DNA of 64,000 bases from an uncultured bacterium (GTDB taxonomy: Bacteria; Armatimonadota; Abditibacteriia; Abditibacteriales; Abditibacteriaceae): positions 1,550,001-1,614,000 of the forward strand of contig CAWJLW010000006.1 in NCBI GenBank assembly GCA_963843795.1. The letters are read 5' to 3'. The notes below the pieces were generated by a model, which was given only the letters and a program-made list of their open reading frames with translations, searched no databases and was not told where the DNA came from. The translations under genes and the position numbers were made by a program. The stretch's first letter is position 1, and the number at the start of each line of letters is the position of its first letter. Shown here one piece after another: positions 17,027 to 63,618 of the stretch.

Positions 17027-17827
17027 ATGGATGCTTTAGTTTTGGCCGGTGGAGAAACGCCACCGGAATTATCGGAAGGTTTGAGTGCCGAGCAAAATTC
17101 GCCCGACCGCGCTCTAGTCGCGCTCAACGGTCAACCGTTGCTCGCCTATACCCTGAACGCACTGCAAAATTGCGCGCGCGTCGAGCGCATCGCAGTCGCC
17201 GGCACGCCCGCAGTTTTGCAATATCTGACCGAACATTACCCGCAAGTACTTGCTGTGGAAAGCGGCGATTCGATGGTTGAAAATGCGGTGCGTGGCTGGG
17301 AGCGTCTGCAGGAACAAAGCGGCGCTTCGCACGTAACTTTAATCACCACCAGCGATGTGCCCCTGGTGAGCGGCGCGACTTACGAGGAATTTTTGCGCGG
17401 CTTCGAGGAACAAAACGTCGATGCATCGTATGCGATTGTGACCAAAGAAAGCTGCGAAGCGCAGTTTCCCGGCGGCAGGCGCACTTATGCCAAGTTGAAA
17501 GATGGCACTTACACCGCGGGCAACGCGGTAATTGTGGCGGGCGCTACGGTGAAGAAATTGCAGGGACTTTTCGAGAAGTTTTATCGGGTGCGCAAAAATC
17601 CTCTCGCTATTGCCCGCATTTTGGGCCTGCGTTTCGTGTGGCGTGCGCTGCGCAAACAATTGACGGTGGCCGAACTCGAAGCCTATTTATCGAAATTACT
17701 TAACGGACGTTTTGGCTCTGTTGTGATGAAAGATGCTTCCATCGCCTTCGATGTTGATAAAATCGAAGATTATCGCGTCGCCGCGACAAGAATCCAAAAT
17801 TTGCCAACCCAGCAGGGAGAAAACTAA
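17027..17827 (+). CDS. MobA-like NTP transferase family protein
   Basis: DALVLAGG N-terminus, TSDVPL, FDVDK. Confidence 0.85.
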   Translation: MDALVLAGGETPPELSEGLSAEQNSPDRALVALNGQPLLAYTLNALQNCARVERIAVAGTPAVLQYLTEHYPQVLAVESGDSMVENAVRGWERLQEQSGASHVTLITTSDVPLVSGATYEEFLRGFEEQNVDASYAIVTKESCEAQFPGGRRTYAKLKDGTYTAGNAVIVAGATVKKLQGLFEKFYRVRKNPLAIARILGLRFVWRALRKQLTVAELEAYLSKLLNGRFGSVVMKDASIAFDVDKIEDYRVAATRIQNLPTQQGEN

Positions 17828-18258
17828 TGAAACAAGTCATCGCCACTGTCGAAGCACCGCCCGCTATCGGGCCTTACGCACAGGGAATTCGCGCCGGAGA
17901 AACCATTTACGTTTCGGGCCAACTGCCCATGGATCCCAAGACCCGCAAAATTATTGACGGCGATATCGCTGCCCAGACCGAACAAGTTCTGATTAATATT
18001 CGCGCCATCGTGGAAGAAGGCGGCGGTACCATGGACGACATCGTGCGCATCGGAATTTATCTGACCAATCTTGACGATTTCGAGGAAGTCAACCGCGTGT
18101 ATACGATGTTTTTCCCCACTATCGACAACGCACTGACCGAAACTTTGCCGCCCGCGCGCTCGACTGTCGAAGTCTCGCGCCTGCCGCGCGATGCGCAAAT
18201 CGAAATGGACGCCATCGCCGTCATTACACCCGGCTATTCCGGCTTCGATGTTTATTAA
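17827..18258 (+). CDS. RidA/YjgF/UK114 family enamine deaminase
   Basis: APPAIGPYAQG, VSGQLP, PARSTVEVSRLP; TAATG overlap with the previous gene. Confidence 0.92.
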   Translation: MKQVIATVEAPPAIGPYAQGIRAGETIYVSGQLPMDPKTRKIIDGDIAAQTEQVLINIRAIVEEGGGTMDDIVRIGIYLTNLDDFEEVNRVYTMFFPTIDNALTETLPPARSTVEVSRLPRDAQIEMDAIAVITPGYSGFDVY

Positions 18259-18261
18259 AGA

Positions 18262-18323
18262 CCCTAAAAAGAGAAAAGCCGTCCCTGCAAGTACTTGCAG
18301 GGACGGCTTTTCTCTTTTTAGGG
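18262..18323. terminator. 62-bp perfect loop-less palindrome centred on GCAAGTACTTGC
   Basis: CCCTAAAAAGAGAAAAGCCGTCCCTGCAAGT|ACTTGCAGGGACGGCTTTTCTCTTTTTAGGG fills almost the whole convergent intergenic gap. Confidence 0.88.
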
Positions 18324-18330
18324 AGCGCTT

Positions 18331-18777
18331 TCAATCCGGTTGCACCCAACTGCCTACAATGGGATAGCGAAAATCTTCGCCATTGAAAGTTTTGATGCCA
18401 CCGACAATTCCCAAAATCGCTGCCACAACATGCAGCAAACCTACAATCGGCACGATAATGAGCCAGCCAACTCCTAAAGTCGCAAAGCCCAAAATAAAGC
18501 CCAGCGCAACCGCCAGCCATTCGGCGACGGTGATCGCCAGATGATAAATGAACGCTTGCTTGCCTTGAAACGCGGCGAATGGAGTTTTGCCATTGCGACT
18601 AATCAGCCAGATAATCAGCGGCACAACCCAGCCGAACTGAGGCAATAAAATCGATAGATGCGATAAGCCCGCCATGACTTTTTCATCGCTACCCGGCCCG
18701 AATTGCGGCCCGCCATCGGGCGAGCCACTTTGCGTTGGCAACGATGAGGGAGAATACGGAGAACGTGGTGGTTGCAT
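18331..18777 (-). CDS. DUF4870 (Tic20-like) membrane protein
   Basis: LSHLS...VPLIIWL...FQGKQA...GEDFRYP pattern. Confidence 0.85.
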   Translation of the reverse strand: MQPPRSPYSPSSLPTQSGSPDGGPQFGPGSDEKVMAGLSHLSILLPQFGWVVPLIIWLISRNGKTPFAAFQGKQAFIYHLAITVAEWLAVALGFILGFATLGVGWLIIVPIVGLLHVVAAILGIVGGIKTFNGEDFRYPIVGSWVQPD

Positions 18778-18854
18778 GAAAATTCCTTGAAATCACTTTC
18801 AACAATTGTAAGTCTGGATGCAAGTACTTGCAGGACAATATTTTACGAACCATT

Positions 18855-19436
18855 TTAGCTTGCTGGCTGCGGCGCATTTTGCGGCACCTGCAAAACTGAT
18901 TGACCAGTTTCATCGGGCGGCACGCCAGGCAGCGCGCTGGGGTCAAACGAATTGAACGCGGGACGCACCAGCAAATACAACAACAGATAGCTTAGCAAGA
19001 GCGAAATTCCAAATGCTGCGCCGGCCAGCATCACGCGGCGCGGCCACTCGCGCGCCAGAAGCATCAGCAACGTACAACCCAACACAATTGCCAGCGCGCC
19101 CGGCCCAACGATGGTCAGGCCCGCGCGCTCGAAAGCCAGCAAAACAAAACCCAGCACAACATTGCCCACACACCCACCCACAGCGCCGCCCAGTATGTCC
19201 CTTCTCTCGTCGGGAGCGGCTGTGGGATCAGGAGCGGCTGGCTCGGAAAGCAGTGTTGCCGAAGCAAACTTTTGTCTACCGATACGAGGCTTATCGTCGA
19301 AATCGGGTAACAGCGCGCGCTCTTCGGGCGTCAATTCACGGCGCTTTGGCGGAGAAACGGGTTGAGAAAGCGGCGCGTCCGAATCGGGCTGCGATATATT
19401 TTCGGGCTGCAATGAATTTTCAGGTATCGAATTCAT
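18855..19436 (-). CDS. Hypothetical membrane protein (3 TM)
   Basis: Fits the operon spacing; Pro-rich N-terminus followed by hydrophobic segments. Confidence 0.65.
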   Translation of the reverse strand: MNSIPENSLQPENISQPDSDAPLSQPVSPPKRRELTPEERALLPDFDDKPRIGRQKFASATLLSEPAAPDPTAAPDERRDILGGAVGGCVGNVVLGFVLLAFERAGLTIVGPGALAIVLGCTLLMLLAREWPRRVMLAGAAFGISLLLSYLLLYLLVRPAFNSFDPSALPGVPPDETGQSVLQVPQNAPQPAS

Positions 19437-19445
19437 AGATGAGAT

Positions 19446-20558
19446 TTATTTCTGGGTCGCGCAAAACGCGTCGGCTAAAATCTGCACATTGGCTTCAATC
19501 GAAAATAATTCCGCGACCCGTGCGCGCGCCAGTTCGCAGCGAGCGATTAAAGTCGCACGATCAGTGTTCCAATCATGCCACAATTCACGCACGCTTTGGC
19601 CAAGAGCCACATCCTCATTCTCGCACAAATAAGCGATGCTGTGGTCGCAAAAATCGCTCACGCCTCCGACATGGGTCGCTACAATTGGCAACCCGCACGC
19701 CGCCGCTTCCAGCAAAACATTCGGTAAACCATCGCGGTCGCCATCATCCGCAATTTGCGAAGGTAAAACCAGCGCGTCCGCTTCGTGCATCGCATCAATA
19801 ACCTGAGTCGATTCCAGCGCACCGGCCAAAAAAACGCGCTCTTGCAAAGTTAATTGCGCGACTTGCTTTTCCAATGCATCACGTTCTGGCCCATCACCGA
19901 TAATTACGGCCTGCCAAGCAGCGTCTTGCCACGCTGCAAGTACTTGCAGCCAACGAGACATACCTTTTTTCGGCACCAAGCGCCCGACGCTTAACAAACG
20001 CAGCGGCCCATCAGGTTTGGTCAAATTCGGGGGTTGAAAGCTGAAATCGTGCAAGGGAATTCCGTGCGGAATATAATGAATTTTCGCAGCGCAATCGGGC
20101 ACTAGCTGCGCCAAAAAACGCGCACCTTGCCGCGTGCAGACGGCAGCAAAAGTTGCTGAACGCAGTTTGGTTTCCCAATCGCGCCCGTCAACCCACAAAT
20201 CGCGGGCGTGTCCACTGAAACTCCAAGTCAAATCCAATTCCTGCGCCGCGCCTTGCGCGATTTCAGCGGGAAACGAAGCCCAGCCCGCGTGCAAATGAGT
20301 CACGTCTTTTAATAAACCATCGCGTTCACGCAACGCCCAATCGCGGCCAAGATTATGAAAATAAGTCGTCGGGTTCATTTTGCGTTTGACCGCTTCCCAA
20401 GCCCCACCGCTTGCGCCCAAATCGTACGCGCCTTGTCCGGCTTCGAGCGCGAAAATCACAATTTCAAAGCCCGCGTTGCGCAGTGCTTCGATTTCACGCG
20501 CGATGAAAGTTTCAGTTTGATGCGGAAAGCGATGCAGCAGATAGGCGATTTTCATCAT
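19446..20558 (-). CDS. Glycosyltransferase family 4
   Basis: ETFIAREI, SVGRLVPKKG, DGLPNVLLEAAACGLP. Confidence 0.92.
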   Translation of the reverse strand: MMKIAYLLHRFPHQTETFIAREIEALRNAGFEIVIFALEAGQGAYDLGASGGAWEAVKRKMNPTTYFHNLGRDWALRERDGLLKDVTHLHAGWASFPAEIAQGAAQELDLTWSFSGHARDLWVDGRDWETKLRSATFAAVCTRQGARFLAQLVPDCAAKIHYIPHGIPLHDFSFQPPNLTKPDGPLRLLSVGRLVPKKGMSRWLQVLAAWQDAAWQAVIIGDGPERDALEKQVAQLTLQERVFLAGALESTQVIDAMHEADALVLPSQIADDGDRDGLPNVLLEAAACGLPIVATHVGGVSDFCDHSIAYLCENEDVALGQSVRELWHDWNTDRATLIARCELARARVAELFSIEANVQILADAFCATQK

Positions 20559-21209
20559 TCAATTTCCGTGTTTGATAACAACCGGCAAATCGTCCAACGC
20601 AGTCAAAATTTCGCGCACGTTTTTCTCGACATCTTCTTCCCAAACCGCGCTAATGGTCGCGACGCCATGCGCGCCCGCATCCAAACACGCTTGAGCGTTT
20701 TGTGCGTTCACGCCTCCGATTGCGTAAACCGGCACGCGCGATTGCGCGCACACCTCGCGCAACTTTCCGATGCCTTGCGGCGCGCTTTCAGGATGCGATT
20801 TCGTCGGGAAAACAGAACCGAAAATCAGGTAATCCGCGCCTTCTTCGATGGCGCGTTTTGCAGTTTCGGGCGAGTGAACCGAAACGCCGATGCGCGCGTG
20901 ATTATCGAGCGATAAGCGCGCTTGTCGTGGCGCGATTTCGTTTTCGGGCAAGTGCAAACCTTGCGCGTAAATCGTGCGCGCGATGTCGGCGCGCGCGTTG
21001 ATCGAAATTTGTGCGCCAAATTTTTCGCACAATTTCTGGGCTTTGAAAGCCAGCGCTAAAAGTTCGCGCGGCGCGAGTTCGCGTTCGCGCAGTTGAATCC
21101 AGCGCGCACCGCCGCGCAGGGCGTTTAAAATCGCTAAATCGAAGGACGGGCGCATCAGTGCGCGTTGGGTGATGACAATTAATCGGGGCCAATTCGGGCT
21201 TGCATTCAT
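20559..21209 (-). CDS. thiE: Thiamine phosphate synthase / TenI family protein
   Basis: IQLRE, GVSVHS, FGSVFPTKSH, YAIGGV; could be a TenI-like paralog. Confidence 0.8.
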   Translation of the reverse strand: MNASPNWPRLIVITQRALMRPSFDLAILNALRGGARWIQLRERELAPRELLALAFKAQKLCEKFGAQISINARADIARTIYAQGLHLPENEIAPRQARLSLDNHARIGVSVHSPETAKRAIEEGADYLIFGSVFPTKSHPESAPQGIGKLREVCAQSRVPVYAIGGVNAQNAQACLDAGAHGVATISAVWEEDVEKNVREILTALDDLPVVIKHGN

Positions 21210-21280
21210 CTTCTTGGTTTATCTGCTTTACGAAATTCGTGGTTGCCGCATGGGGCGCGATTGGCAAGTACTTGCAAGGT

Positions 21281-22282
21281 ATGAACGGATTTAGCGCGGC
21301 GTTTGGCGTGGCTTTGGTTGGCACGTTGAAAGTGTTTTCGATGGGATTTTGTGGTTGGTGGTTCGTGCGGCGCGGCTGGCTGCCCGCGTCCACGTTGCAA
21401 CCTTTAGGGCAACTCATCGCCTTTCTCACTCTGCCCTGCCTCATTTTCTACCGTTTTGCCACGCACTTCGACCCGCAGGAATTTCCCGACTGGCCCAAAT
21501 ACGCGCTCATCGGCGGCGCGATTACCGCTGTCGGTTTACTATTGGGCCGCTTGCTTTCGATTCGTCACCGCGACAACAACGAAGCCACGATGATGATCGG
21601 CTTTCAAAACGCCGGCTTTTTCGTACTGCCGATGCTGCAAGCGATTTTACCCGCCGACCAGTTCCCGCGCGCCTCGCTTTTATTGTTCGTTTTAATTATT
21701 CCATTTAATGCCTTGTTATGGCTGTTCGGTTCGCAATTATTGTTGGGCCGCAGAGGTTTGTCGGCGCGCGCAGTTTTTACGCCGCCATTTTGCGCGACCA
21801 TCGGCAGCGTTTTGTTGTTTTCGCTCGCCCACGATTGGCTGCATCAGTTCGACACGTCTCTGGTATGGCATGTGATGTTTGGCGACGACAAATCGGTCGG
21901 TGCAATGCAACTCATCGGCGATTTGACGGTACCATTGGCGACGCTTGTTCTGGGCGCATCAATTGGCGCCGATGTGCAAGGCAAGCTCAGCGCTTTACCT
22001 TGGAAACGTGCGACAATGGAAGTAATGCTGGTCAAAATGCTGATTTATCCGTTTCTCGGCTGGCTCGCGCTACGCGCGTTTTTGCCACCGATTTCGCAGG
22101 GGGGCGATGTGGTGATCTGGGTTTTATTGATGTTGGAATTCGCTTCCCCGCCCGCCATTAATGTTCCGGTTTTCGCACGCCAACACGATTATCCGATGCG
22201 TTACATTCCCGCAGCGTGTTTGATCAGTTACGCCGTTGGCATGCTGACAATTCCATTCTGGATCGCTCTGATTTCACGTTGA
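21281..22282 (+). CDS. AEC (auxin efflux carrier) family transporter
   Basis: TLPCLIF, FQNAGF, VPLATLVLGA, ASPPA. Confidence 0.85.
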   Translation: MNGFSAAFGVALVGTLKVFSMGFCGWWFVRRGWLPASTLQPLGQLIAFLTLPCLIFYRFATHFDPQEFPDWPKYALIGGAITAVGLLLGRLLSIRHRDNNEATMMIGFQNAGFFVLPMLQAILPADQFPRASLLLFVLIIPFNALLWLFGSQLLLGRRGLSARAVFTPPFCATIGSVLLFSLAHDWLHQFDTSLVWHVMFGDDKSVGAMQLIGDLTVPLATLVLGASIGADVQGKLSALPWKRATMEVMLVKMLIYPFLGWLALRAFLPPISQGGDVVIWVLLMLEFASPPAINVPVFARQHDYPMRYIPAACLISYAVGMLTIPFWIALISR

Positions 22283-22385
22283 ATTGAAATCGGCAAATTG
22301 TATTCTTTAAAATTCGGGACTTGCGCGCCGCTTTTGCTGTCGATTAAAATGAGGCCGTAATCAAATACAGTTTTAAAAGAACGCT

Positions 22386-22706
22386 ATGAATATGTTTGGA
22401 TTGGCTATTGCCACAATGGGAGCGCTGGCGGTGATATTGCCGGCACGCAGCGAAGCAAAAAAGCTGCGCAATGCAATTCCGCAATCGACGGTGAATCTGA
22501 AAATGCCTGCTGATTCCAATGCGTTGCAGTTTGAAAAAGGAACGATTCGCGTCCGAAACGGCCTTATTCTCGATGGCAAACCATTAAAAATCAAACGTAG
22601 TAAAGAAACTTTGATTTTGCCCGTTGACGGCAAACTGCGCACTCAAAAATTTAAGCTCCAAAAGCTCAAAGCGCCGAAGAAAATCCAGATTGTGCCCGTC
22701 AAATAG
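22386..22706 (+). CDS. Small basic secreted hypothetical protein
   Basis: Signal peptide ending SEA, Lys-rich mature region. Confidence 0.6.
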   Translation: MNMFGLAIATMGALAVILPARSEAKKLRNAIPQSTVNLKMPADSNALQFEKGTIRVRNGLILDGKPLKIKRSKETLILPVDGKLRTQKFKLQKLKAPKKIQIVPVK

Positions 22707-22768
22707 TCCGAATCTCCTGCAAGTACTTGCAGAGCAACTTAGCGCGCAACATCTCGTCGTTTTTCGTC

Positions 22769-23614
22769 ATGCCTGAACTTCCTGAAGCTGAAACCGTGCG
22801 CGCTCAACTCGAGCCGCAATTAGTCGGACAAACTATCGTTCAAACGTGGGCGCGACTGCCGCGCATCACGCTTCCCGACATTGAAACCTTCCAAACCCAA
22901 ACCGAAAATGCGCGCGTCGTGGGCGCCAAACGGCGCGGCAAGCAGATTTATTTTCCGCTCGATAACGGTTGGAATTTGCTCATTCATCTCGGCATGACCG
23001 GACGCGTTCACGTCGAAGCCGATGACGATAATTTCAGCGTCGAAAACTTGCCCAAACACGTTCACGGAGTTTTGCGTTTGGACAACCAAACGCGGATGAT
23101 TTTCACCGACCCGCGCACATTCGGTAAGCTCGGCGTTGCCCAAGAATTGCCGTTTTTGACGCAAATGGGGCCGGAACCTTTGGATTTAGATTTCGATATC
23201 GCCGCTTTTGTCGCGCTCTTGCACACGCGCAAAACCAAAATTAAAGCCGCCCTGCTCGACCAAAAACTAGTCGCGGGACTGGGCAATATATACGCGGACG
23301 AAGTGTGCTTTCTCGCGCGCGTTCATCCCGCCACACGCGCCTGCGATATTCCATTGGATACTCTGAAAGTACTTGCGGGCCACATGAAACCGGTTTTGGA
23401 ACGCGCAATTCAAGCGCGCGGCGCTACGCTCAAAGATGGCGGTTATCAGGACACTTTCGGCCAAGAAGGCGCGTTTTATCCGCAAGCCTACGGACGCACC
23501 GGAGATCCGTGCGATAATTGCGGCACGCTCATCGAACGCGGTGTTCTGGGCGCGAGCAAAACTGCGCGCTCGTATCATTTCTGCCCGAATTGCCAGCCAT
23601 TGAAAGGCGAATAA
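22769..23614 (+). CDS. mutM: Formamidopyrimidine-DNA glycosylase
   Basis: MPELPE start, HLGMTG, GLGNIYADE, C4 zinc finger CDNC...CPNC. Confidence 0.96.
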   Translation: MPELPEAETVRAQLEPQLVGQTIVQTWARLPRITLPDIETFQTQTENARVVGAKRRGKQIYFPLDNGWNLLIHLGMTGRVHVEADDDNFSVENLPKHVHGVLRLDNQTRMIFTDPRTFGKLGVAQELPFLTQMGPEPLDLDFDIAAFVALLHTRKTKIKAALLDQKLVAGLGNIYADEVCFLARVHPATRACDIPLDTLKVLAGHMKPVLERAIQARGATLKDGGYQDTFGQEGAFYPQAYGRTGDPCDNCGTLIERGVLGASKTARSYHFCPNCQPLKGE

Positions 23615-24195
23615 TGAACCACCTCAATGAAGATTTGTTTCATGCGGTCACAACCAATAACAAAGCCGAAGTTAAGAAGCTTTTGAAGCGGAAAGCGAAT
23701 CCGAATTACATTCAAAGTGATGGCTACACGCTGCTTCATTGGGCGGCGCAGGAAGGTTTCGTCAAAGTCGCCAAACTGCTTGTCCAATACGGAGCAGACG
23801 TGAACGCTAGCGACGACAATCAAATGACACCACTTTACAACTCTGCAGGGCGCGACTTTAAAATGGTCAAAACGCTGATTGAATTGGGTGCCGATGTCAA
23901 CAAACACCAGCCAAATGGTGTGGCGTTGCATAACGCCGTTTCGTGGGAAAGTACCGAAATTGTAGAATTTCTTTTGGCGCATGGCGCCAAGCCGAATATC
24001 GCTGACGACGAAGGTCAAACGCCGCTATTCTTTGCCGCCTCAGCCGAAAATCTTGAAATCGCTAAGTTGCTAATCGCTCACGGCGCGAATAAAACCGTGA
24101 AAGACAACAACGGCAAAACGCCGTTAGATACCATCGCCGATAAAAAAGCCGAAGCCATCGCGCGATTTGAAAAGATGTCGAAAGTTTTGAAATAG
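23614..24195 (+). CDS. Ankyrin repeat protein
   Basis: About 5 ankyrin repeats (GYTLLHWAA, TPLY, GQTPLFFAA, GKTPLD); TAATG overlap with mutM. Confidence 0.9.
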   Translation: MNHLNEDLFHAVTTNNKAEVKKLLKRKANPNYIQSDGYTLLHWAAQEGFVKVAKLLVQYGADVNASDDNQMTPLYNSAGRDFKMVKTLIELGADVNKHQPNGVALHNAVSWESTEIVEFLLAHGAKPNIADDEGQTPLFFAASAENLEIAKLLIAHGANKTVKDNNGKTPLDTIADKKAEAIARFEKMSKVLK

Positions 24196-24364
24196 ATTTG
24201 TCGCTACAAAAATACAAAATCAGCGTGGGAGATGTTCTCCCACGCTTTTTCCAATTTTGACTTCTCATCGAAACCTGCCAAGCGCAAAAATGGGAATTTC
24301 ATTAGACTTTCTGCAACAAAATTCACCGCAAGTACTTGCAGCACACATCGAACTTATTTTCTTT

Positions 24365-25234: not shown

Positions 25235-25243
25235 ATATGTAGT

Positions 25244-26095: not shown

Positions 26096-26116
26096 ACCCA
26101 GAAAGGATAATCGTTC

Positions 26117-26905: not shown

Positions 26906-26918
26906 TTTCCAATCTTAT

Positions 26919-26950
26919 AAATCGCCCTGCAAGTACTTGCAGGGCGATTT
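26919..26950. terminator. 32-bp perfect palindrome centred on GCAAGTACTTGC
   Basis: AAATCGCCCTGCAAGT|ACTTGCAGGGCGATTT followed by T. Confidence 0.8.
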
Positions 26951-27044
26951 TGCACGACGCTTGGCAGCGATAAGCAGTTTCGGCTTGGTCACACGCGCGC
27001 TGTGTCGTATCTTTTGTGTTTGAACTGTTAATAATTGTTTTCTT

Positions 27045-51706: not shown

Positions 51707-51718
51707 CCATGTCGACTT

Positions 51719-53823: not shown

Positions 53824-53840
53824 CAAAGCTTTCGTAGTGC

Positions 53841-53866
53841 GCTGCAAGTACTTGCAGCACGTTTTT
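53841..53866 (+). terminator. Short core-centred hairpin followed by a T tract
   Basis: GCTGCAAGTACTTGCAGC-ACGTTTTT. Confidence 0.55.
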
Positions 53867-53883
53867 GTCTATAATTCCATCGT

Positions 53884-54921: not shown

Positions 54922-54925
54922 AATA

Positions 54926-54975
54926 TAGAAATGAAAAGCGCGCTGCAAGTACTTGCAGCGCGCTTTTCATTTCTA
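54926..54975. terminator. 50-bp perfect palindrome centred on GCAAGTACTTGC
   Basis: TAGAAATGAAAAGCGCGCTGCAAGT|ACTTGCAGCGCGCTTTTCATTTCTA between convergent genes. Confidence 0.87.
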
Positions 54976-54984
54976 ATCCACCGA

Positions 54985-57018
54985 TTATTTCATCGTGGGA
55001 ATGTAAGCATCGAGCTTTTTCGGCTGGCCGATTTTTACCAGAATCGCGCCATGTGGCGGCACTTCGGTGGTGAACGCTTCGCGCGCTTTGGCGAGATCTT
55101 TCTGCTGCCACAGATCGCGCACCGGCTGCGCGCCTTGCAATTTCAAATCGCTCCATTTCGCCGTCACTTTTTGGTTTTCGGTGCTGCGATTAAAAAGGCC
55201 AACAGCGATGGTGCCATCCCATAGCGGGCGCATCCAGACTTCGGTTTCATCGCCTTTCCACACGCGATGACCCTGAATTCCCAGCGGGTCTTGATCGACA
55301 TCAATTACTTCATCGTTGCTGAGGGCGTTAATGGTAAACGGTGTCACTTTTGACAAATCGCTGCCAATGAGAAGCGGTGCGGCGAGAATGCTCCACAATG
55401 AAAGATGAGTAATCTGTTCGGTCGGCTGCAGCGCGTGCATGAACAGCATATCGGGATCGTTCCAGTTGCCGGGTTTGGCATAGGGGAACTGCCAGGTTTG
55501 ACCGAAACCGATGCCCGCCATGCTGCCATACGACGGCCCGATGTCGCCGGTCGTGCGCCACAAATTACCATGAACTTGGTCGCCCCATTTGGGCACTTCG
55601 GCCATGCCATACTGGCACAAGCTGTAAACGATATCGCGTGGCGCGTTGCTGAGTAAGTCGCCCATCACACGATAGGGCTTTTGTTGTTTTTCCAGTTCTG
55701 GCATGGTCTGCTTGGCCGCGATGCCGCCATAGGAACACCAATCATATTTCAAGTAATCGACGCCCCATTTCGCATATGTCGCCACATCTTGAGCTTCATG
55801 TTCCCATGAGCCATCGTAACCGGCACAGGTTTTCGGCCCGGGCGAAGAATAAATGCCAAATTTGAATCCCATCGCGTGCAAGCGCTCGCCCAGCACTTTC
55901 ATGTCGCCAAACTTTTGGTTGACGCCAATTTCTCCGTTCGCCAAGCGCGGGGCTTGCCAGCAATCGTCGATATTAACGTATTGATAACCGTGATTAATCA
56001 AACCGGTTTTCACCAACCAATCGGCGGCTTCTCGCACTTTTTTCTCATCAACGTTGCAATAATAAATGTTCCACGAGTTCCAGCCCATCGGCGGGGTAAG
56101 CGCCAGTTTGTCTTTGCCTCCGACAATCGTGAGTTTGCGCGAGGTAGTTCCACGTTCGCCTTTTACGCTCAAAGTCGTAACCGTAACGCCGTTTTTTTGT
56201 AGGCTGCCAGAGATAATGCCGGTTTGGGCGTCGATAGTTAAACCAGCGGGCAAATTTTTGGCGCTATATTGCAATGTCCCAAGACCAGTGGCGGGCACTT
56301 TAAATAAAAACGGGCGGCCCGGCGTGGCGCCGGTGATGCGCGCTCCGTGAATTCGCGGTGCAGCGGGCAAGGTCATCGCAATGGGCGGAGGCGGCGTATC
56401 GATAACCGATGATTTCAGCAGTTGAGGTTTTTGGGCGGAGTTAGGTAGCAGTTTCAGTAACGCCCCGGCCCAGTCGGCGTGGTCGGAGTCGATACCATCG
56501 TTGCCATCGGTGACGCGGAGTGTGAGCTTTTTAGCTCCGGTGAGATCGACCGAGAACAAATGCGGCGCTTGCTTGCCTTTGAGAATGCCGCTGCGAGCGA
56601 CGGTTTTGCCATCGACCCTCACCAGAAATTCGACCGAACCATTACCATTTTTCTCATCATCGACACCGGCCATCGCTATGAAGCGCGTAGCAACACCTTT
56701 CAGGTCGATACTGATTTCGCTGCGCGCGTGAGTTCCGATGCCGTGTGGATAAGTTTTGCCGGAAAGCATCAGCGGATTAGCATCGACCGACAACTTCGAT
56801 TGGGCCTTGCCGTATTCCTGATCGATAAGGCTCAGATTCAGCGTATCGAGCCAGAGCGCATTATCGGGCGTGGTGTTGGCTTGTGCCAGCGCCTCATCGG
56901 TTTCCATGTTTTGCGCAACGCAGTTCACAGTCAACGGCGCGCTCGCCAACATTAGAGCACAGGCCGTCCAGTGCTTCGCAACCTTTTTTCGTCCACCAAA
57001 TTCCAACGCATTTGCCAT
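54985..57018 (-). CDS. GH27 alpha-galactosidase with NPCBM/NEW2 and Ig-like domains
   Basis: TPPMGWNSWN, NIDDCWQ, DYLKYDWC, WRTTGDI, WNDPDML; GIGTHA...DHADW. Confidence 0.93.
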   Translation of the reverse strand: MANALEFGGRKKVAKHWTACALMLASAPLTVNCVAQNMETDEALAQANTTPDNALWLDTLNLSLIDQEYGKAQSKLSVDANPLMLSGKTYPHGIGTHARSEISIDLKGVATRFIAMAGVDDEKNGNGSVEFLVRVDGKTVARSGILKGKQAPHLFSVDLTGAKKLTLRVTDGNDGIDSDHADWAGALLKLLPNSAQKPQLLKSSVIDTPPPPIAMTLPAAPRIHGARITGATPGRPFLFKVPATGLGTLQYSAKNLPAGLTIDAQTGIISGSLQKNGVTVTTLSVKGERGTTSRKLTIVGGKDKLALTPPMGWNSWNIYYCNVDEKKVREAADWLVKTGLINHGYQYVNIDDCWQAPRLANGEIGVNQKFGDMKVLGERLHAMGFKFGIYSSPGPKTCAGYDGSWEHEAQDVATYAKWGVDYLKYDWCSYGGIAAKQTMPELEKQQKPYRVMGDLLSNAPRDIVYSLCQYGMAEVPKWGDQVHGNLWRTTGDIGPSYGSMAGIGFGQTWQFPYAKPGNWNDPDMLFMHALQPTEQITHLSLWSILAAPLLIGSDLSKVTPFTINALSNDEVIDVDQDPLGIQGHRVWKGDETEVWMRPLWDGTIAVGLFNRSTENQKVTAKWSDLKLQGAQPVRDLWQQKDLAKAREAFTTEVPPHGAILVKIGQPKKLDAYIPTMK

Positions 57019-57100
57019 ATTCGGTTTCTCCTTGAGCGCCGCTACAATACGGTCGCGCGGCTTAGTTTAATGACGAAAATAGGCTGCGACAGATTTATTT

Positions 57101-58876
57101 TCAGGACACGAAATCAGGCGCAATGTCTTCCGACACAAGATTTTCGGGAGTGATTTTTTCAGACGCGTCGCTTGTCCTATCATCCTGAATTCCGGCGACC
57201 GGCAAATTATGCAGTCCGGTAAAAATATGCTGATGCGGCAATCCGAGCAGCAAAAGCGTTTCTTCCAGCAGCATCAGCGCCCCTGCGACTTCGGGGATTA
57301 CGACCGCCGTCGCACCGGCGCGACGCAATTTGACATCGTTTTCGGTGCGCTGAGCGCGCGCCACAATTAAAATTTCGGGGTTGGACTGCCGAACATTATG
57401 AACCACAGCGCGCGTTGAACCAAAATCGGGCAGCGCCACAACGACCAGGCGCGCGCGTTCGGGATGTGCGGCTTCGAGGACATTCCGATACGAGGCATCG
57501 CCATAAATCGCGGGCAAACCTTCGGCAATAATTTCGCGCACTAAATTCAATTCTTGTTCGATGATGAGAACCGGCAAACCGGCCTGTCGCATTCCGCGCG
57601 CCATACGTTCGCCGACGCGTCCGTAGCCCACGATGATGGCATGGTTCTCCAATGCGGGAATGGGCGGTATTAAGGGCGCGCGCGCGCTCATCAAACGATT
57701 GAGAAAAGTCATTTTAGCAAGCGCGCGTCCGACACGTGGTGCGACCCAGAAAGCCAAAGGCGCACACAAAATCGTCACCAATGCCGCCGATAAAATCAGG
57801 TTATACAATCCCCTGGGAATCGCGCCCGCTTCCAAACCAGCGCGCGCTAATACGAAGTTAAATTCGCCAATCGAAATCATGCCCAGAGAAGCAAACGCGG
57901 TTGTTTTTTGCCCTAGACGAAACGGCAAAAGCGCCAGACCGGTCAAAAGTGCTTTGGCCACCATAATGAACAACGCCATTCCAAGAACGGCAGGCAAATG
58001 GGCGATAATAAAGCGCACATCAATCAGCATTCCCACCGAAACGAAAAACAGCGTGGCGAACAAATCGCGCATCGGCACCATCTCGGCCATGATGCGATGA
58101 TCGAATTCCGTTTCGGTCAACATCAGACCCGCCATAAACGCACCCAAGGCGGGCGATAATCCCAACAACGCGCTGGCCGAAGCCGTACCCAATGCCAAAA
58201 CCACCGCAGTCAACAAGAACAGTTCAGCAGATTGCAATTGTTCGACGCGCGCCATCAGCGCGGGCACGACGCGCGCCCCTAAAAATAGCGTGACAGCGAT
58301 AAACGCTACCGCTTTGAAAGCAACCCACAAAAAATCCTGAGCGCTGCCTCCGCCCTGACCGGACAATTTTGGCAGCAATAAAATCAACAAAACAACGACC
58401 AAATCTTGCACGATAAGCATTCCCAACAATAAGCGCCCATGATTGGAAGCGATTTCGCCGCGATTCATCAAGTTCTTCAAAATTACCATCGTGCTGCTGA
58501 TGCTGATGATGCCGCCGAAAAATACGCTGCGCGCAAGCGGCCAGCCCAAAACATGACCCAGCGCGGTTCCCGCCAGCAAAATCGAAAACACTTGAACGGT
58601 GGTGCCGATAACTGCTGGCCCTTTAATGCGCGCCAATTCTTTGAGCGAAAACTCGATGCCCAACGCGAACATCAAAAAGAGCACGCCGATTTCGGCCAAA
58701 ACCGCGATTTGTTCTCGGTCGGCCACAAAGCCAGGCGTGAACGGCCCAATCGCCATGCCCGCAACCAGATAACCGATAATAGGCGACTGACGCAACCAGT
58801 GAGCGACCAGGCCGCCGGAAAGCGCTACCATGATGGCCACAGTGAGCGAAACGATCAGTTCAAGTTCGTGATTCAT
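57101..58876 (-). CDS. CPA2 cation:proton antiporter with TrkA-N domain (YbaL/KefB-like)
   Basis: EIGVLFLMFALGIEFS, LIVQD, LGAFMAG, IIVGYGRVG. Confidence 0.92.
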   Translation of the reverse strand: MNHELELIVSLTVAIMVALSGGLVAHWLRQSPIIGYLVAGMAIGPFTPGFVADREQIAVLAEIGVLFLMFALGIEFSLKELARIKGPAVIGTTVQVFSILLAGTALGHVLGWPLARSVFFGGIISISSTMVILKNLMNRGEIASNHGRLLLGMLIVQDLVVVLLILLLPKLSGQGGGSAQDFLWVAFKAVAFIAVTLFLGARVVPALMARVEQLQSAELFLLTAVVLALGTASASALLGLSPALGAFMAGLMLTETEFDHRIMAEMVPMRDLFATLFFVSVGMLIDVRFIIAHLPAVLGMALFIMVAKALLTGLALLPFRLGQKTTAFASLGMISIGEFNFVLARAGLEAGAIPRGLYNLILSAALVTILCAPLAFWVAPRVGRALAKMTFLNRLMSARAPLIPPIPALENHAIIVGYGRVGERMARGMRQAGLPVLIIEQELNLVREIIAEGLPAIYGDASYRNVLEAAHPERARLVVVALPDFGSTRAVVHNVRQSNPEILIVARAQRTENDVKLRRAGATAVVIPEVAGALMLLEETLLLLGLPHQHIFTGLHNLPVAGIQDDRTSDASEKITPENLVSEDIAPDFVS

Positions 58877-59096
58877 AAAATCAATAGAAATTAATGCTAT
58901 TTACAATGAATGAGGATACAACAAGCGCAAAATCGACTTGCAAATGCCTGAGCAGGTTACTTGCCTTTTCAATTTTGCCAGAAAAACAGTGATTTCTTAT
59001 ACTGGAATTCCAAGCAACGCCGTGACAATTTGGACGTTGTTGATGGCAAAGCAAATCGTTGTGCAATTTGTCCGGTGCAGTGCTGTGGAGAGAAAA

Positions 59097-59675
59097 ATGA
59101 CAATTAGAAACCAACTTTTGGGGACATTTCTAGCCAGCTCGGTGGCGGCCATTGCGCTGGGCGTTTATATCAGCGATCCGACTGCACAGGCCAGCAATTT
59201 CAACGCAAATCGCGACACAACTTCGCAAACAGCCCAACCATCGATCGAAAAAGCTCAATCTGCGAACAACCAAACCGAAGCCAAGCCCACCAAAACAGAA
59301 GCGGCGATAATAACGAAAATTGCTTGGCAGCCGGATTTTGTCACTGCGCAACGCGTTTCCAAAACGAGCGACAAACCCCTGATGATCGTTTTCGGCGCTG
59401 AGTGGTGTGGCGCTTGTAAAATGCTGGAAAAGAATACTCTGTCTAATGTGAGCGTAGTTGAAGCCGCTCAAAACTGGGTTGCGGTCGAAATCGACGTGGA
59501 CAAAGAACCTGAACTCGCCGCGCGATATGGAATCAAAAGCCTCCCGACAACGGTGTTCTTCAAAGGCGATAGCAAGAAATTTGGCTTTGTCGGAGCCGCA
59601 GGGCCAGAAGATATGCTCAACGTGATGCAAACGGCGCGCGCCAAGTTACAGGGCGCACCGGCCTCGCAAAGCTGA
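59097..59675 (+). CDS. Exported thioredoxin family protein
   Basis: Signal/anchor sequence, WCGAC, cis-Pro SLPT. Confidence 0.85.
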   Translation: MTIRNQLLGTFLASSVAAIALGVYISDPTAQASNFNANRDTTSQTAQPSIEKAQSANNQTEAKPTKTEAAIITKIAWQPDFVTAQRVSKTSDKPLMIVFGAEWCGACKMLEKNTLSNVSVVEAAQNWVAVEIDVDKEPELAARYGIKSLPTTVFFKGDSKKFGFVGAAGPEDMLNVMQTARAKLQGAPASQS

Positions 59676-59761
59676 TAGCAGACCAACACACCTATTTCCA
59701 AACCTATTCCATCGTGATTTGAGCCAGAAGCTCGAGCCGATTCATTTTAAAGGAGACACAC

Positions 59762-60073
59762 ATGAAGAAGACATTGTTTTTTGCAGGTGCTGCGTTGCTG
59801 ATGGCGTCTTGCACACTGCCCGTTCAAGCGGCTCCGGCCAAAACCAAAGCCCCCGCCAAAACATCCAAGACCAAAATCACCGAAGTCAAAGTCTGTCCGA
59901 TAACGATGGAGCCGGTGGTTGGCAAAGGTGCAGGTTCGCAGGTCATGGGCGACAAGCGCGTCTATTTCTGCTGTGAAGGTTGTCAGCCCGCTTTTAACAA
60001 ACTGCCCAAAGGCGAGCAAGCCAAAAAGCTCAAAGCGGCAACGGAAAAGCAGAACGCAAAGAAAAAAGGCTGA
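59762..60073 (+). CDS. Secreted YHS/TRASH-like small protein
   Basis: AAGGAG RBS, signal peptide, CPIT...YFCCEGC. Confidence 0.8.
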   Translation: MKKTLFFAGAALLMASCTLPVQAAPAKTKAPAKTSKTKITEVKVCPITMEPVVGKGAGSQVMGDKRVYFCCEGCQPAFNKLPKGEQAKKLKAATEKQNAKKKG

Positions 60074-60086
60074 GCAACAACAAAAT

Positions 60087-60126
60087 CAAAACAACGCCCT
60101 GCAAGTACTTGCAGGGCGTTGTTTTG
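60087..60126. terminator. 40-bp perfect palindrome centred on GCAAGTACTTGC
   Basis: CAAAACAACGCCCTGCAAGT|ACTTGCAGGGCGTTGTTTTG between convergent genes. Confidence 0.85.
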
Positions 60127-60129
60127 GCT

Positions 60130-61833
60130 TTAATCGGCTTTGCTTGCACTTGTAGATTTTAGAAGTGGCAGCGAAAAACGAAAAGTGGTTCCGCTGCCAT
60201 GGCCTTCGCTATACGCCTCGACATTGCCATGATGCAGTTCTGCGATGTAGCGCACAATAGTCAAACCCAGTCCCAATCCGCCGATGGGGCGCACCGCTGT
60301 GCTATCGGCCTGCCGAAAGATCCCAAATAATTGCGGCAAAAATTCCGGTTCGATGCCTTGTCCCGTATCCTGAACTTCGATGTGCGCCATCTCTTCATCG
60401 CAATGCAAGCGTACCGCGATATTACCGCCGCCGGGCGTAAATTTATAAGCATTGGACAGCAAGTTTTCCATGCCCTGAAAGAGACGGATTTGATCGCCCA
60501 GCACCCTTAAGGGTTCGGTCGGAACGTGCAGGGATAAGCGCAACGCTTTCTCCCGACAAAGGGGCCGCATTTTTTCGACCGCTCGTTCGAGTAGTGGGGC
60601 CAGCTCCAAAGGCTGATATTCGATATTCAATTTACCGGCTACCATGCGCGACACGTCGATCAAATTTTCTACCAAACGCTCCTGCGCACGCGTGTTGTCT
60701 TCGATGGTTTGCAGCGCGCGTTCGTGAGTTTCGCGGTCGTGCATCGGCTGGCGCAGCAGGTAAACCCAGCCCAGAATCGAAGTTAGGGGCGTGCGCAATT
60801 CGTGAGACAGCACAGCTAGAAAATCATCGCGCGCGCGATTGGCGGCTTCCGATTGAGAAAATAGGCGCGCGTTATCGACCGACAACGCGGCCAAACGCGC
60901 CAAATCCTGCGCCAGTTGCAAATCGTCACGTGTATACGCGCGCCCCAACTTTTTGCTTGCCACCAAAGCCAGCGTGCCCAGCGTGCGCCCCCGCGTGCGC
61001 AAAGGCACGATAATGCTTGAACGCACATCGAGCGCTGCCACCGCGCGACGATGCTGCTCATCGTGCGTCATGGGCCGCAGCAAATCTTCATCGAGATAAG
61101 GATAGAATTGAGCTTCGCCGCTGTTGATAACTTTCGACACACCGTTTTCGGCATCGGGAAGCAAAGGAAATACACGCTTCATCGAGTGCGCCAATTCTGT
61201 TTCACTTGGATCGGAATGCGCAATCGCAACGCGGCGATAAAACTGGCCCTCGAGCAAATCGACAAAACACCAATCGGCCAAATACGGCACTGCCGACTGC
61301 GCCACTTGCATCAAAGTGCGCTCGAAATCCAGTGATCCGGCCAAAAGTTCGCCCGCCTGTGCCAAAAACTCTTGTTTTTGAGCGCGCTCATTGGCTGCGC
61401 GCTCGCGACTGGCAATAGCTTCAATGCGCGGCGTGATGTCGCGGCACAGCATAATTAAACGCGCGGATTCCAATTCTTCGGGCAATGCTTCGTTTTCCAA
61501 ACGCGACAGACGCACTTCATACCACACATTGCATTCGCCCTGCTGCCAGAAAAATTCGCGTTCGAACAGTTTGCGCTCGCCTTCGATGATCTGAGTGGCG
61601 ATGGACTCGAAAGACAATCCGGCGAGCCAGAGCGCGTGATCGTGCAAGGCTTCCCCACATTGTGCGCTCTGCACTTTCCATTCGGAATTGGTGGCGAGAA
61701 CTTCACCACTTTGGCTGAGAATCGCCACGCCACAATCTATGGCGTCCAACGCTACACGCCAGAAGGCGCGCGACGCTGGACCGACGCATTTGTCCTGACC
61801 AGAATTTTTTTCGTCGCCAACAAATAAGTTCAT
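60130..61833 (-). CDS. PAS-GAF sensor histidine kinase
   Basis: SHELRTPL, NLLSNAYKFT, DTGQGI, GLGLGL. Confidence 0.93.
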   Translation of the reverse strand: MNLFVGDEKNSGQDKCVGPASRAFWRVALDAIDCGVAILSQSGEVLATNSEWKVQSAQCGEALHDHALWLAGLSFESIATQIIEGERKLFEREFFWQQGECNVWYEVRLSRLENEALPEELESARLIMLCRDITPRIEAIASRERAANERAQKQEFLAQAGELLAGSLDFERTLMQVAQSAVPYLADWCFVDLLEGQFYRRVAIAHSDPSETELAHSMKRVFPLLPDAENGVSKVINSGEAQFYPYLDEDLLRPMTHDEQHRRAVAALDVRSSIIVPLRTRGRTLGTLALVASKKLGRAYTRDDLQLAQDLARLAALSVDNARLFSQSEAANRARDDFLAVLSHELRTPLTSILGWVYLLRQPMHDRETHERALQTIEDNTRAQERLVENLIDVSRMVAGKLNIEYQPLELAPLLERAVEKMRPLCREKALRLSLHVPTEPLRVLGDQIRLFQGMENLLSNAYKFTPGGGNIAVRLHCDEEMAHIEVQDTGQGIEPEFLPQLFGIFRQADSTAVRPIGGLGLGLTIVRYIAELHHGNVEAYSEGHGSGTTFRFSLPLLKSTSASKAD

Positions 61834-61896
61834 AACAAGACAATGAGTGCCGCAAGTACTTGCAGTTGGTACTTGCGACGATTTCGGGGACAAAAT

Positions 61897-63030
61897 TCAC
61901 TTCAGCAGTTCTCGCGCAGCCTCGACGCGTTGCACGGCTTCGCCAGCGGTTGAAGCTAGCGCAGTCAGATGGCCCATTTTGCGACCCGCACGCGGTTGAG
62001 TTTTGCCATACAAATGCAATTTTAAATCTGCACATCCCAGAAGCGCGGCCCAATCGGGCGTGCCGTTTTCCCAACAATCGCCCAGCAAATTCGCCATCGC
62101 CGCGGGGCGCAGCATTGTGGTTTGTCCCAAAGGCAGGCCACACACTGCGCGCAGCTGCTGCTCGAACTGGCTGGTCGAACACGCATCAATTGTCCAATGT
62201 CCCGAATTGTGCGGACGCGGGGCCAATTCATTGATCACCAATTCGCCATTTCCCAACAAGAAAAATTCCACGCACAGCACACCAACGACTTGCAAAGTTT
62301 CCAACACGGCACGCGCGATCTCAACCGCGCGCGCAAGTACTTGCCATGGGATTTGGGCAGGCGCAATCGTGACATCTAAAATCTGATTAACGTGACGATT
62401 TTCGACTGCACCGTAGTGCACGAAATTCCCTTGCTCATCGCGCGCCGCCACGACGGAAATTTCGCGTTCAAAGCTCATCCATTTTTCCAGCACACCTTCG
62501 TCGTCGCCCAAACCTCGCGCAGCCGCTTCCACATCATCAGGCGTTTTAATGACGAACTGGCCTTTGCCATCGTAACCGAAACCGGCAGTTTTCAAAACGC
62601 AGGGCGCGCCAAGCTCCTGCACGCCGGCAAGTACTTGCGCGTGCCCGCGCACATGACGAAATGGCGCAATGGGAAAACCGTGCTGCGCCAGCCAATCTTT
62701 TTCACGCTTGCGATGCTGCGTGATGTGTAGCACTTCGCCGCGTGGATGAACCGGCACTTGCGCCGCGCACGCTTCGACCGCACTCAATGGCACGTTTTCA
62801 AATTCAAAAGTGACAACCGAAACTTCGCGCGCAAATTCGCTGATGCGCTCAATGTCGTGGTAGGAAGCTTGAATTTCGCGGTCGGCCACCTGTCCGGTCG
62901 GCGTATCTTCGTCAGGCGAGTAAGTGTGCACGCGATAGCCCATTTGCCGCGCAGCAATTGCAAACATTCGTCCTAACTGGCCCGAACCCAACACGCCAAT
63001 TGTCGCGCCCGGCAATATCGTTTTGCTCAT
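61897..63030 (-). CDS. purK: N5-carboxyaminoimidazole ribonucleotide synthase
   Basis: GSGQLGRM, TFEFENV, GYDGKGQ, NELAPRPHNSGH, RKMGH. Confidence 0.96.
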   Translation of the reverse strand: MSKTILPGATIGVLGSGQLGRMFAIAARQMGYRVHTYSPDEDTPTGQVADREIQASYHDIERISEFAREVSVVTFEFENVPLSAVEACAAQVPVHPRGEVLHITQHRKREKDWLAQHGFPIAPFRHVRGHAQVLAGVQELGAPCVLKTAGFGYDGKGQFVIKTPDDVEAAARGLGDDEGVLEKWMSFEREISVVAARDEQGNFVHYGAVENRHVNQILDVTIAPAQIPWQVLARAVEIARAVLETLQVVGVLCVEFFLLGNGELVINELAPRPHNSGHWTIDACSTSQFEQQLRAVCGLPLGQTTMLRPAAMANLLGDCWENGTPDWAALLGCADLKLHLYGKTQPRAGRKMGHLTALASTAGEAVQRVEAARELLK

Positions 63031-63114
63031 AATTTTTGAGAGAAAATGAAAAAGATTTTACAGACTTTTTCACCGCAACTCCTGCAGCAGAGCGCAGCTG
63101 TCTGCATTGTTTCG

Positions 63115-63618
63115 TTATTCGCCCGGAATGGGATTATCCAGCACGCGCTGAGTTTGAGCAGCGCGATATTCGTCTAATCGCACGCGCAAATCTTCATCGT
63201 GATTGGCTAAAATCGCTGCGGCAAAGAGCGCGGCATTGGTTGCGCCCGCGTTGCCGATAGCCAGAGTACCGACAGGAATACCGGCGGGCATTTGCGCAAT
63301 CGAAAGCAGAGAATCCATGCCACTAAGCGCGCGACTTTGAACGGGCACACCCAGAACCGGCACGCTGGTTTGTGCGGCGATCATGCCGGGCAGATGCGCC
63401 GCGCCACCGGCTCCGGCGATGATGACTTGCAAACCTTGTTCACGCGCGCTTTGCGCAAATTCCGCCATCAATTGCGGCGTGCGATGCGCCGAAACCACGC
63501 GCGCGAGATAAGGAATTTCAAGTTGTACAAGTACTTGCACCGCATTTTTCATCGTTTCCCAATCGGATTGACTGCCCATAACGACCGCGACTTTTGCCGC
63601 CACTTTTGCGTTTTCCAT
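63115..63618 (-). CDS. purE: N5-CAIR mutase
   Basis: [33 protein letters not shown]. Confidence 0.96.

Follow-up and report, generated by a model that had tools for sequence, protein, structure and literature searches.

DNA uptake sequences (DUS), together with uptake signal sequences (USS), are known from two bacterial families. Highly iterated palindrome 1 (HIP1) of cyanobacteria boosts transformation in a way that depends on methylation, and Campylobacter jejuni uses methylated RAATTY sites (bioRxiv 10.1101/2024.09.10.611283); the function of HIP1 is described as open after 30 years (PMC13756078). The DNA considered here is a 64-kb window (the whole stretch analysed, positions 1,550,001 to 1,614,000 of contig CAWJLW010000006.1, assembly GCA_963843795.1) from an uncultured bacterium of the Abditibacteriaceae (Armatimonadota). 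It holds 38 copies of GCAAGTACTTGC, a 12-bp perfect palindrome around GTAC, and 100 shuffles of it held none. The favoured reading, given a probability of about 0.45, is that GCAAGTACTTGC is a methylation-marked tag resembling HIP1 and DUS that accumulated by transformation bias.

Genome-wide counts were made in the source genome (G000; 4.3 Mb, 92% complete), which includes contig C6, with genes called by a dicodon model (3,544 genes, 86% coding). GCAAGTACTTGC was found 2,567 times with overlaps (2,563 non-overlapping) where an order-4 model expects 20, and 753 copies were coding (0.20 per kb) versus 1,810 non-coding (2.9 per kb). One-mismatch copies numbered 506 (expected 5) and two-mismatch copies 371 (expected 108), perfect copies thus outnumbering one-mismatch copies roughly 5:1.

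Codon use was examined in all QVLA and KYL peptides of the proteome. CAA-GTA-CTT-GCN encoded 502 of 566 QVLA peptides where 0.4% was expected, and therefore the motif acts at the DNA level; AAG-TAC-TTG likewise encoded 193 of 315 KYL peptides (4.1% expected). Extended pairing was rare in deep coding copies, only 3 of 601 pairing at 8 or more of 10 flank positions. Both results bear out the original prediction, made from the window sequence, that the motif has a DNA-level function and is not an RNA hairpin alone.

The three reading frames were occupied by 494 QVLA, 146 KYL and 113 ASTC copies (66/19/15%), as compared with 73/17/10% from amino-acid frequencies and 78/14/8% from a BLOSUM tolerance model. 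The claim that the Cys-containing frame is purged failed, given that ASTC made up 15% of coding copies against 10% (amino-acid) or 7.5% (BLOSUM) expected. The ASTC peptide occurred 131 times in the proteome and its permutations 1-15 times, and a local six-frame check was passed by 67/83 interior ASTC sites, 102/119 KYL sites and 348/387 QVLA sites. Codon preference was rejected as the cause of the frame bias because the dominant frame employs two rare codons, GTA (0.07) and CTT (0.08); codon scores were 0.43 for QVL, 0.71 for KYL and 0.41 for ASTC. The frame bias is a by-product of common amino acids, and its first description, partly wrong, recorded the expected footprint of such a motif. The proteome has been reshaped in the process, with QVLA about 15 times and ASTC about 30 times above the amino-acid-frequency prediction.

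Within the window, GCAAGTACTTGC began at all 12 positions at which exact coding copies had been reported, and the nine QVLA and three KYL frames were reproduced with independent gene calls. The absence of ASTC from these twelve was also reproduced, but it does not hold as a rule (113 of 753 coding copies genome-wide are ASTC) and is put down to sampling, the chance of 0 in 12 being 0.14. Pfam agreed with the gene names given for the NTP transferase, GT4, HhH-GPD, RecQ, Pyr_redox_2, cyclase, PurK, UbiA, DEAD helicase, MutM, CruF-type and PurE genes, and the gene named as a glycoside hydrolase (GH) had only a CBM_4_9 match. The reported one-off variants in mutM and purE were recovered; the third, LQVLA in cruF (26291), differs from the 12-mer at two positions. 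Whether a 13th copy (21264) is coding depends on the start codon of its gene, which must be 21239 for this and not the ATG that follows. The remaining 25 copies are intergenic. The features are as follows.

17242..17253, + strand: coding copy, QVLA, MobA-like NTP transferase (sequence match, gene calls, Pfam)
19936..19947, - strand: coding copy, QVLA, GT4 glycosyltransferase (sequence match, gene calls, Pfam)
21264..21275, + strand: copy at a membrane transport gene's 5' end (KYL if the start is 21239, otherwise leader)
23365..23376, + strand: one-mismatch copy, LKVLA, mutM (Pfam, mismatch count)
25822..25833, - strand: coding copy, KYL, UbiA prenyltransferase (gene calls, Pfam)
28699..28710, + strand: coding copy, KYL, CBM_4_9-containing protein (gene calls, Pfam)
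31054..31065, + strand: coding copy, KYL, DEAD/DEAH helicase (gene calls, Pfam)
45292..45303, - strand: coding copy, QVLA, HhH-GPD glycosylase, nth-like (gene calls, Pfam)
47895..47999, + strand: two coding copies, QVLA, in recQ (47895, 47988) with a one-mismatch copy between them (47937)
49278..49289, + strand: coding copy, QVLA, Pyr_redox_2 (trxB-like) gene (gene calls, Pfam)
53202..53213, + strand: coding copy, QVLA, adenylate/guanylate cyclase (gene calls, Pfam)
62333..62344, - strand: coding copy, QVLA, purK (nearby gap in 1/80 orthologues)
62627..62638, - strand: coding copy, QVLA, purK (nearby gap in 0/80 orthologues)
63527..63538, - strand: one-mismatch copy, VQVLV, purE (Pfam, mismatch count)
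6593..60112, no strand: 14 terminator-like intergenic copies, each central in a long inverted repeat that has A/T tails (starts 6593, 7934, 12543, 14008, 15105, 18287, 26929, 30300, 38227, 42517, 49785, 51732, 54945, 60101)
16721..61863, no strand: 11 intergenic copies whose pairing extends little or not at all into the flanks (starts 16721, 18820, 22719, 24328, 36271, 37288, 40597, 44074, 45653, 53844, 61852)

Two one-mismatch copies also lie 10 bases apart, with a two-base overlap, at 9968-9989 of the window.

The scarcity of gaps near the two purK sites pointed to substitution and not insertion, and the same was seen more widely. When 56 sites were aligned over four overlapping sets of relatives, 46 had no nearby gap, and amino-acid identity was 0.28-0.43 at the sites versus 0.60-0.66 overall. 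Low site identity together with few gaps indicates that the motif was written mainly by substitution in variable regions, altering proteins. The expectation that it would be favoured wherever the protein tolerates it was supported, sites appearing mainly by substitution at tolerant positions. The most codon-typical genes were poorer in the motif (0.105 per kb vs 0.28-0.34). Two DNA sequencing runs (short-piece cover) listed no difference within motif copies and were uninformative on polymorphism.

Copies were distributed uniformly along contig C6 (47-83 per 100 kb in 34 of 36 full bins), and an origin or terminus bias was rejected, copy density showing no dip at the GC-skew switch. Copies were present in 284/450 convergent, 1,107/2,141 tandem and 237/474 divergent spacers, where long hairpins surrounded 71%, 27% and 11% of them, respectively. 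Terminator-like hairpins are a secondary co-option of the motif. Insertion-sequence (IS)-like genes abound in the two longest stretches lacking the motif, islands of 26 kb each, and one of these also has type I restriction-like genes; together with the final 38 kb of C6, these gaps contain IS-like, restriction-like and conjugation-like genes (all named by eye). The contig end (C6:3600000-3623414; GC 67%, VirB-like genes, zero motif) is either a foreign element or a mis-join.

Copies keep apart within about 1 kb. Spacers usually carried one, with under-dispersed counts (variance/mean 0.48-0.78), and coding copies were separated from intergenic copies by 1,041 bp versus 694 ± 32 expected. Against a null in which genes were matched by length, codon typicality and relative position, the median distance of coding copies to the closest intergenic one was 1,111 vs 862 ± 36 bp (573 sites, 0/300 permutations). 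Within genes, copies were displaced from the end that has a flanking copy (0.556 vs 0.447, p = 0.0006), and gaps longer than 4 kb numbered 80 vs 126 ± 6 expected. The densest 1.5-kb windows held merely 4-5 copies and indicated no gene.

The exact 12-mer occurred 0-3 times in each of 60 relatives, and its AGTACT core was bimodal among 27 family genomes, with 2,813-4,733 copies in six and 1-285 in 21. None of 274 genomes outside the family in the Armatimonadota was AGTACT-rich. The motif-rich genomes carried dialects of their own: CAAAGTACTTTG in G001, TCGAGTACTCGA in G009, G015 and G019, and CGAGTACTCG in G012, with AAAAGTACTTTT, GGAGTACTCC, ATGAGTACTCAT and the asymmetric AAAAGTACGCCY on metagenome contigs. 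Contig L219 carried AAAAGTACGCCY and L223 had GGAGTACTGCC-like sites; a perfect palindrome may not be needed by a reader protein. AGTACT cores were found at positions homologous to G000 sites in 6/60 cases in aligned genes of G001, 2/10 in the AAAAGTACTTTT (AAAA) lineage and 1/68 in G009, and the lineage dialects sit on shared AGTACT cores. A GyrA tree of 24 genomes (G001 and G014 had no match and G024 was truncated) distributed the motif-rich genomes over two positions, motif-poor G006 branching from within them. Close relatives are motif-rich, neutral or strongly core-avoiding, and such natural controls make the putative reader findable by whole-genome comparison.

At the avoiding extreme, G005, G008, G011, G022 and G026 had AGTACT 1-5 times in 4-6 Mb versus 545-1,172 copies of a control 6-mer. 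Avoidance was also seen in phylum families f11 and f34, which lack the methyltransferase of the Abditibacteriaceae described below. Dense, loosely flanked AGTACT (14-15 per ~3 kb) was observed at GC-rich loci L226, L250 and L260, with a more distant homologue of that enzyme. Viral contigs gave six single 16-mer matches, with no second 12-mer copy within 8-10 kb. No prior account of the 12-mer or of an AGTACT/GTAC iterated palindrome was found by the searches made of the openly readable literature, subscription papers, REBASE and supplements lying outside this coverage; GTAC is absent from the covered main text of PMC4390886, whose supplements could list such a motif.

The sole N6/N4 methyltransferase match in G000 was a 256-aa DPPY enzyme (C6:2517368-2518135). 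Orthologues were present in 21 of the 27 family genomes, all six motif-rich ones included, and in 0 of 274 others. No C5 methyltransferase (PF00145) match was obtained in G000 (92% complete) or G012. In one clade (L228-L280, ~29 loci), the methyltransferase homologue has ilvB and ilvN on its two sides; a nuclease gene is absent from the neighbourhood, yet GTAC avoidance persists.

At 14 loci a 210-240-aa gene adjoins the methyltransferase gene. Its product was modelled from an alignment at a predicted local distance difference test (pLDDT) score of 91 (34 for a single-sequence model), and the model matched MutH, NhoI, PvuII and DpnI at Z 6-7, a middling score (MutH: Z 7.2, root-mean-square deviation 3.8, 145 aligned). 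This partner is, on the model, a restriction-fold (PD-(D/E)XK) nuclease that would form a type II restriction-modification pair with the methyltransferase. It had no Pfam match and no plasmid match. Its best viral fold match, A7RBT9 (template modelling score 0.81), carries no name; it may be a chlorovirus protein, perhaps related to CviQI, an enzyme of GTAC specificity. At viral loci with the nuclease, GTAC was among the two rarest 4-mer palindromes in 4/5. The nuclease was found in 0/6 motif-rich genomes, G000 among them, versus 13/21 motif-poor genomes. GTAC figures for relatives were taken from samples of 10-180 kb each; the sampled GTAC was 0-0.28 of expectation in 12 of the 13 nuclease-bearing family genomes and 0.50 in one, and in five genomes with neither gene it was 0.71-0.83 in three and 0.06 and 0.28 in two.

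Ten of the 13 family nucleases (L312-L319, L322, L323) begin with a hydrophobic, signal-peptide-like leader, judged by eye. Most are unlinked from the methyltransferase, and the G008 copy lies directly after comEA (L320, L329). From these leaders the family nuclease is possibly an exported restriction enzyme; apparent export signals on nucleases of this fold are surprising in their own right.

Under the favoured transformation-driven reading, the orphan methyltransferase would methylate the GTAC core, and a DNA-bending protein would read the methylated core with its flanks, most likely as transforming DNA is taken up or recombined. A better site would give a fragment an advantage, and sites would in this way accumulate by substitution. 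Loss of the nuclease would have freed GTAC as a positive tag, changes in the reader would rewrite the flanks into dialects, and a saturating benefit per fragment would give the ~1-kb spacing. Transformation drive is favoured because the pattern repeats that of DUS dialects (PMC3630211), because the part played by HIP1 and RAATTY in transformation depends on methylation, and because competence genes are present and envelope-level screening of GTAC seems to operate in relatives. The competence genes of G000 include comEC, comEA and dprA.

A number of observations weigh against this reading. Seventy percent of the G000 copies are intergenic. The competence genes extend to motif-poor relatives (comEA in 25/27 family genomes, comEC in 5/5), as does the methyltransferase, and no reader protein or uptake receptor was found, pilins being outside the search. 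The orphan methyltransferase likely targets GTAC, a specificity read from avoidance only: GTAC was among the two rarest 4-mer palindromes at 33/49 distant homologue loci versus 15/80 controls, but about 29 distant homologue loci are one clade and the remaining 26 are short of other palindromes too. About two motif-rich clades underlie the contrast in nuclease occurrence (Fisher p = 0.016). G002 and G016 avoid GTAC with neither gene, the methyltransferase of G004, G006 and G007 is accompanied neither by a detected nuclease nor by the motif, and contig L210 carries the nuclease and the GGAGTACTCC dialect together. Gaps were present near 10/56 aligned sites against a background of 7-8% (mostly 1-2 residues, once four), and the overall coefficient of variation of gaps between copies was not below the null (0.89 vs 0.91, p = 0.27). 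The A/T wave described next has the opposite flank phase in the AAAAGTACTTTT lineage (93 sites), and it reaches further than the T-tracts of USS, which are shorter than a 65-bp symmetric wave (PMC3458573).

The wave was measured as A/T content on both GCAAGTACTTGC flanks and has a period of 10.55 bp, a phase of 4.2 and a reach of about 65 bp, with peaks ~15, 25, 36, 46, 57 and 68 bp from the dyad. At non-hairpin sites its relative amplitude was 0.33-0.43 (18-50 bp), 0.14-0.24 (40-75 bp) and ~0.1 beyond; at hairpin sites it was 0.23, and at ten control anchors, including forced A-tract anchors, it was at most 0.10. The wave was seen in all three frames, in 193 fully non-coding sites and in 367 sites without the first A-tract. 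The two arms were independent, and the wave score fell from 0.047 at perfect sites to ~0 at 4 or more mismatches. The phase was common to G001, G009 and pooled G012/G015/G019 sites.

Such a wave would also be expected if a dimeric, sequence-specific nucleoid protein bound the (methylated) dyad, bent ~130 bp around itself and wrapped the chromosome, with selection on architecture keeping sites every ~1.6 kb. The reach of 65 bp keeps this main rival close behind the favoured reading, at a somewhat lower probability. The two-armed wave in all frames and at non-coding sites, its scaling with consensus match, its coincidence with the A/T positions of nucleosomes, and the uniform, per-spacer under-dispersed copies all speak for it. 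The roughly 5:1 excess of perfect over one-mismatch copies and the fast dialect turnover are unusual for nucleoid-protein sites and count against it. In coding DNA, 0.029 of the 0.047 wave persisted after synonymous recoding, and therefore part of the wave is carried by protein sequence. No histone-fold match was obtained (PF00808 0/27, PF09123 0/5), HU is single-copy in all six motif-rich genomes and present in all 27, and 21 of the 27 family genomes live without the motif. A chromosome-architecture role has been proposed for HIP1 (PMC5861425).

Neither ComEA, DprA, MutS nor HU separated motif-rich from motif-poor genomes. In G000 the C-terminal domain of mutS (C6:2528748-2531324; L362, L367) is split over two frames; several other G000 genes are also split, so assembly indels are likely.

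A broader proposal joins the nuclease to the wave and holds that one GTAC restriction-modification system became two opposite gates on incoming DNA. In most lineages the exported nuclease would break down GTAC-containing DNA that arrives unmarked at the envelope, and GTAC would have been eliminated from the genome; in at least two lineages the nuclease would have been lost and a reader of methyl-GTAC would have arisen, wrapping ~130 bp in nucleosome-like phase and spreading dialect-specific palindromes through genome and proteome; and HIP1 would be the same kind of wrapped site. Taken jointly, these three parts are doubtful. A weak wave of similar phase at HIP1 counts in favour of the transformation-driven tag: HIP1 sites in five 46-50 kb cyanobacterial plasmid stretches (L423-L427) gave a wave of 0.015 ± 0.004 (n = 374), repeated at 0.015 ± 0.006 in 213 sites added later, with a period of 10.5 bp and a phase of 3.4; among nine control 6-mers only TTTAAA scored equally high. 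No mention of a HIP1 flank wave was met in the passages of the HIP1 literature covered. Phased flanks predict a footprint of ~130 bp, which is testable on HIP1 in laboratory cyanobacteria.

A further possibility is a ratchet of methyl-directed repair and gene conversion, set out for HIP1 as Elhai's model (PMC4390886), which would rewrite the flanks of methylated GTAC towards a single consensus with no benefit to the cell. It agrees with retention of the orphan methyltransferase in 6/6 rich genomes, with a partner nuclease nearest MutH by fold and MutS present, and with sites that alter amino acids and become scarcer where codon use is most typical. It is nonetheless improbable, as a cytosine methyltransferase is required, of which G000 and G012 gave no PF00145 match, the MutH-like nuclease was not found in rich genomes, and a local process alone explains neither the 1-kb spacing nor phased flanks to 65 bp.

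It is very improbable that the pattern stems from strong DNA gyrase sites, in which GTAC would be the 4-base overhang and the GyrA C-terminal domains would wrap the flanks. The E. coli gyrase motif is similar in length, symmetry and period (PMC6379681), the -4G/+8C, -2A/+6T and +1G/+4C preferences are satisfied by the G000 12-mer (PMC12324340), and no type IIA A subunit other than that of gyrase was found (one per genome, with no second Topo IV-like match). The wave is however anti-phase to the published E. coli matrix when GTAC is taken as the overhang (A row of Table DS10, PMC6379681; r = -0.5 at zero shift, phase 4.2 vs 8.4), and other dialects violate the -4G or -2A preferences. An alignment of GyrA from 25 genomes gave no motif-linked residue in the DNA-gate region. 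Most GyrA loci (L368-L392) carry an 11-16 residue coiled-coil insertion, which is lacking in G003 and G017.

Least probable of all, and already largely refuted, is that the motif is merely a favoured terminator loop or a remnant of a mobile repeat similar to repetitive extragenic palindromes (REP) or miniature inverted-repeat transposable elements (MITE), with coding copies as by-products: 579 intergenic copies do lie in long hairpins (71% of convergent copies) and G000 has one weak Y1 transposase match (E 4e-7), but 753 coding and 846 intergenic copies lack hairpins, orthologues mostly show substitution and not insertion, one-mismatch variants after stop codons had no strand bias to G-U pairs (26 vs 29), and motif-poor relatives have more Y1 matches.

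Among other known systems, the SlmA site of E. coli is a 12-bp palindrome with an AGTACT centre that has tens of sites and avoids the terminus. Unlike SlmA, Noc and MatP sites, GCAAGTACTTGC has thousands of copies and is uniform across the GC-skew switch, and unlike Chi, which is polar and strand-biased, it is a palindrome. Membership in the REP/RAYT (REP-associated tyrosine transposase) or MITE class was rejected, in view of freely varying flanks, the substitution origin and the one weak Y1 match. Jumbo phage RaK2 (L434-L451) is similar in having 937 AGTACT copies versus 142 of a control 6-mer and its own dialect, TCAGTACTGA, and differs in having no flank wave (0.002 ± 0.002). At 13 places RaK2 matches G000 proteins, mostly housekeeping by eye, with no candidate reader in common, and no close methyltransferase homologue was found in the phage collection searched. 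Both subunits of type II topoisomerase also have matches in RaK2.

The likeness to DUS/USS and HIP1 that the original prediction had drawn held in most tests; GCAAGTACTTGC is palindromic unlike DUS/USS and is not HIP1 proper. C. jejuni RAATTY shares a palindromic site and an orphan methyltransferase, but it is a degenerate 6-mer every 60 bp where GCAAGTACTTGC is a sharp 12-mer every 1.7 kb with dialects (bioRxiv 10.1101/2024.09.10.611283). The DUS of Neisseriaceae and the USS of Pasteurellaceae share thousands of near-perfect copies, a conserved core and dialects (PMC3630211, PMC2817400, PMC3458573), as well as enriched peptides, a bias in reading frame, co-option into terminators, absence from foreign genes, A/T tracts in phase and competence genes. 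They differ in being polar, whereas GCAAGTACTTGC is palindromic and likely methylation-linked, and in a frame use that follows codon preference (PMC2817400) where that of GCAAGTACTTGC tracks amino-acid frequency. The GCAAGTACTTGC wave extends on both sides to ~65 bp, and the uptake role of GCAAGTACTTGC is a predicted one.

The resemblance to HIP1 (GCGATCGC) lies in a perfect palindrome on a 4-base core linked to an orphan methyltransferase (in G000 a probable link), in spread by substitution, in enrichment in all three frames and in non-coding DNA, in alternative versions by lineage (PMC4390886, PMC5861425, PMC13756078) and in a weak flank wave of similar phase. The GCAAGTACTTGC system differs in its GTAC core, its length of 10-12 bp and its phylum, and in being 70% intergenic with many terminator-like hairpins and no C5 (DmtC-type) methyltransferase found in G000. 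It differs further in its many dialects inside Abditibacteriaceae, in the extreme relatives that avoid the core and in a G000 wave about 3 times stronger. The GCAAGTACTTGC system works like HIP1 and DUS, yet it is neither by sequence, symmetry or host, and it adds a third phylum-level case in which a palindrome likely tied to a methyltransferase is joined with dialects.

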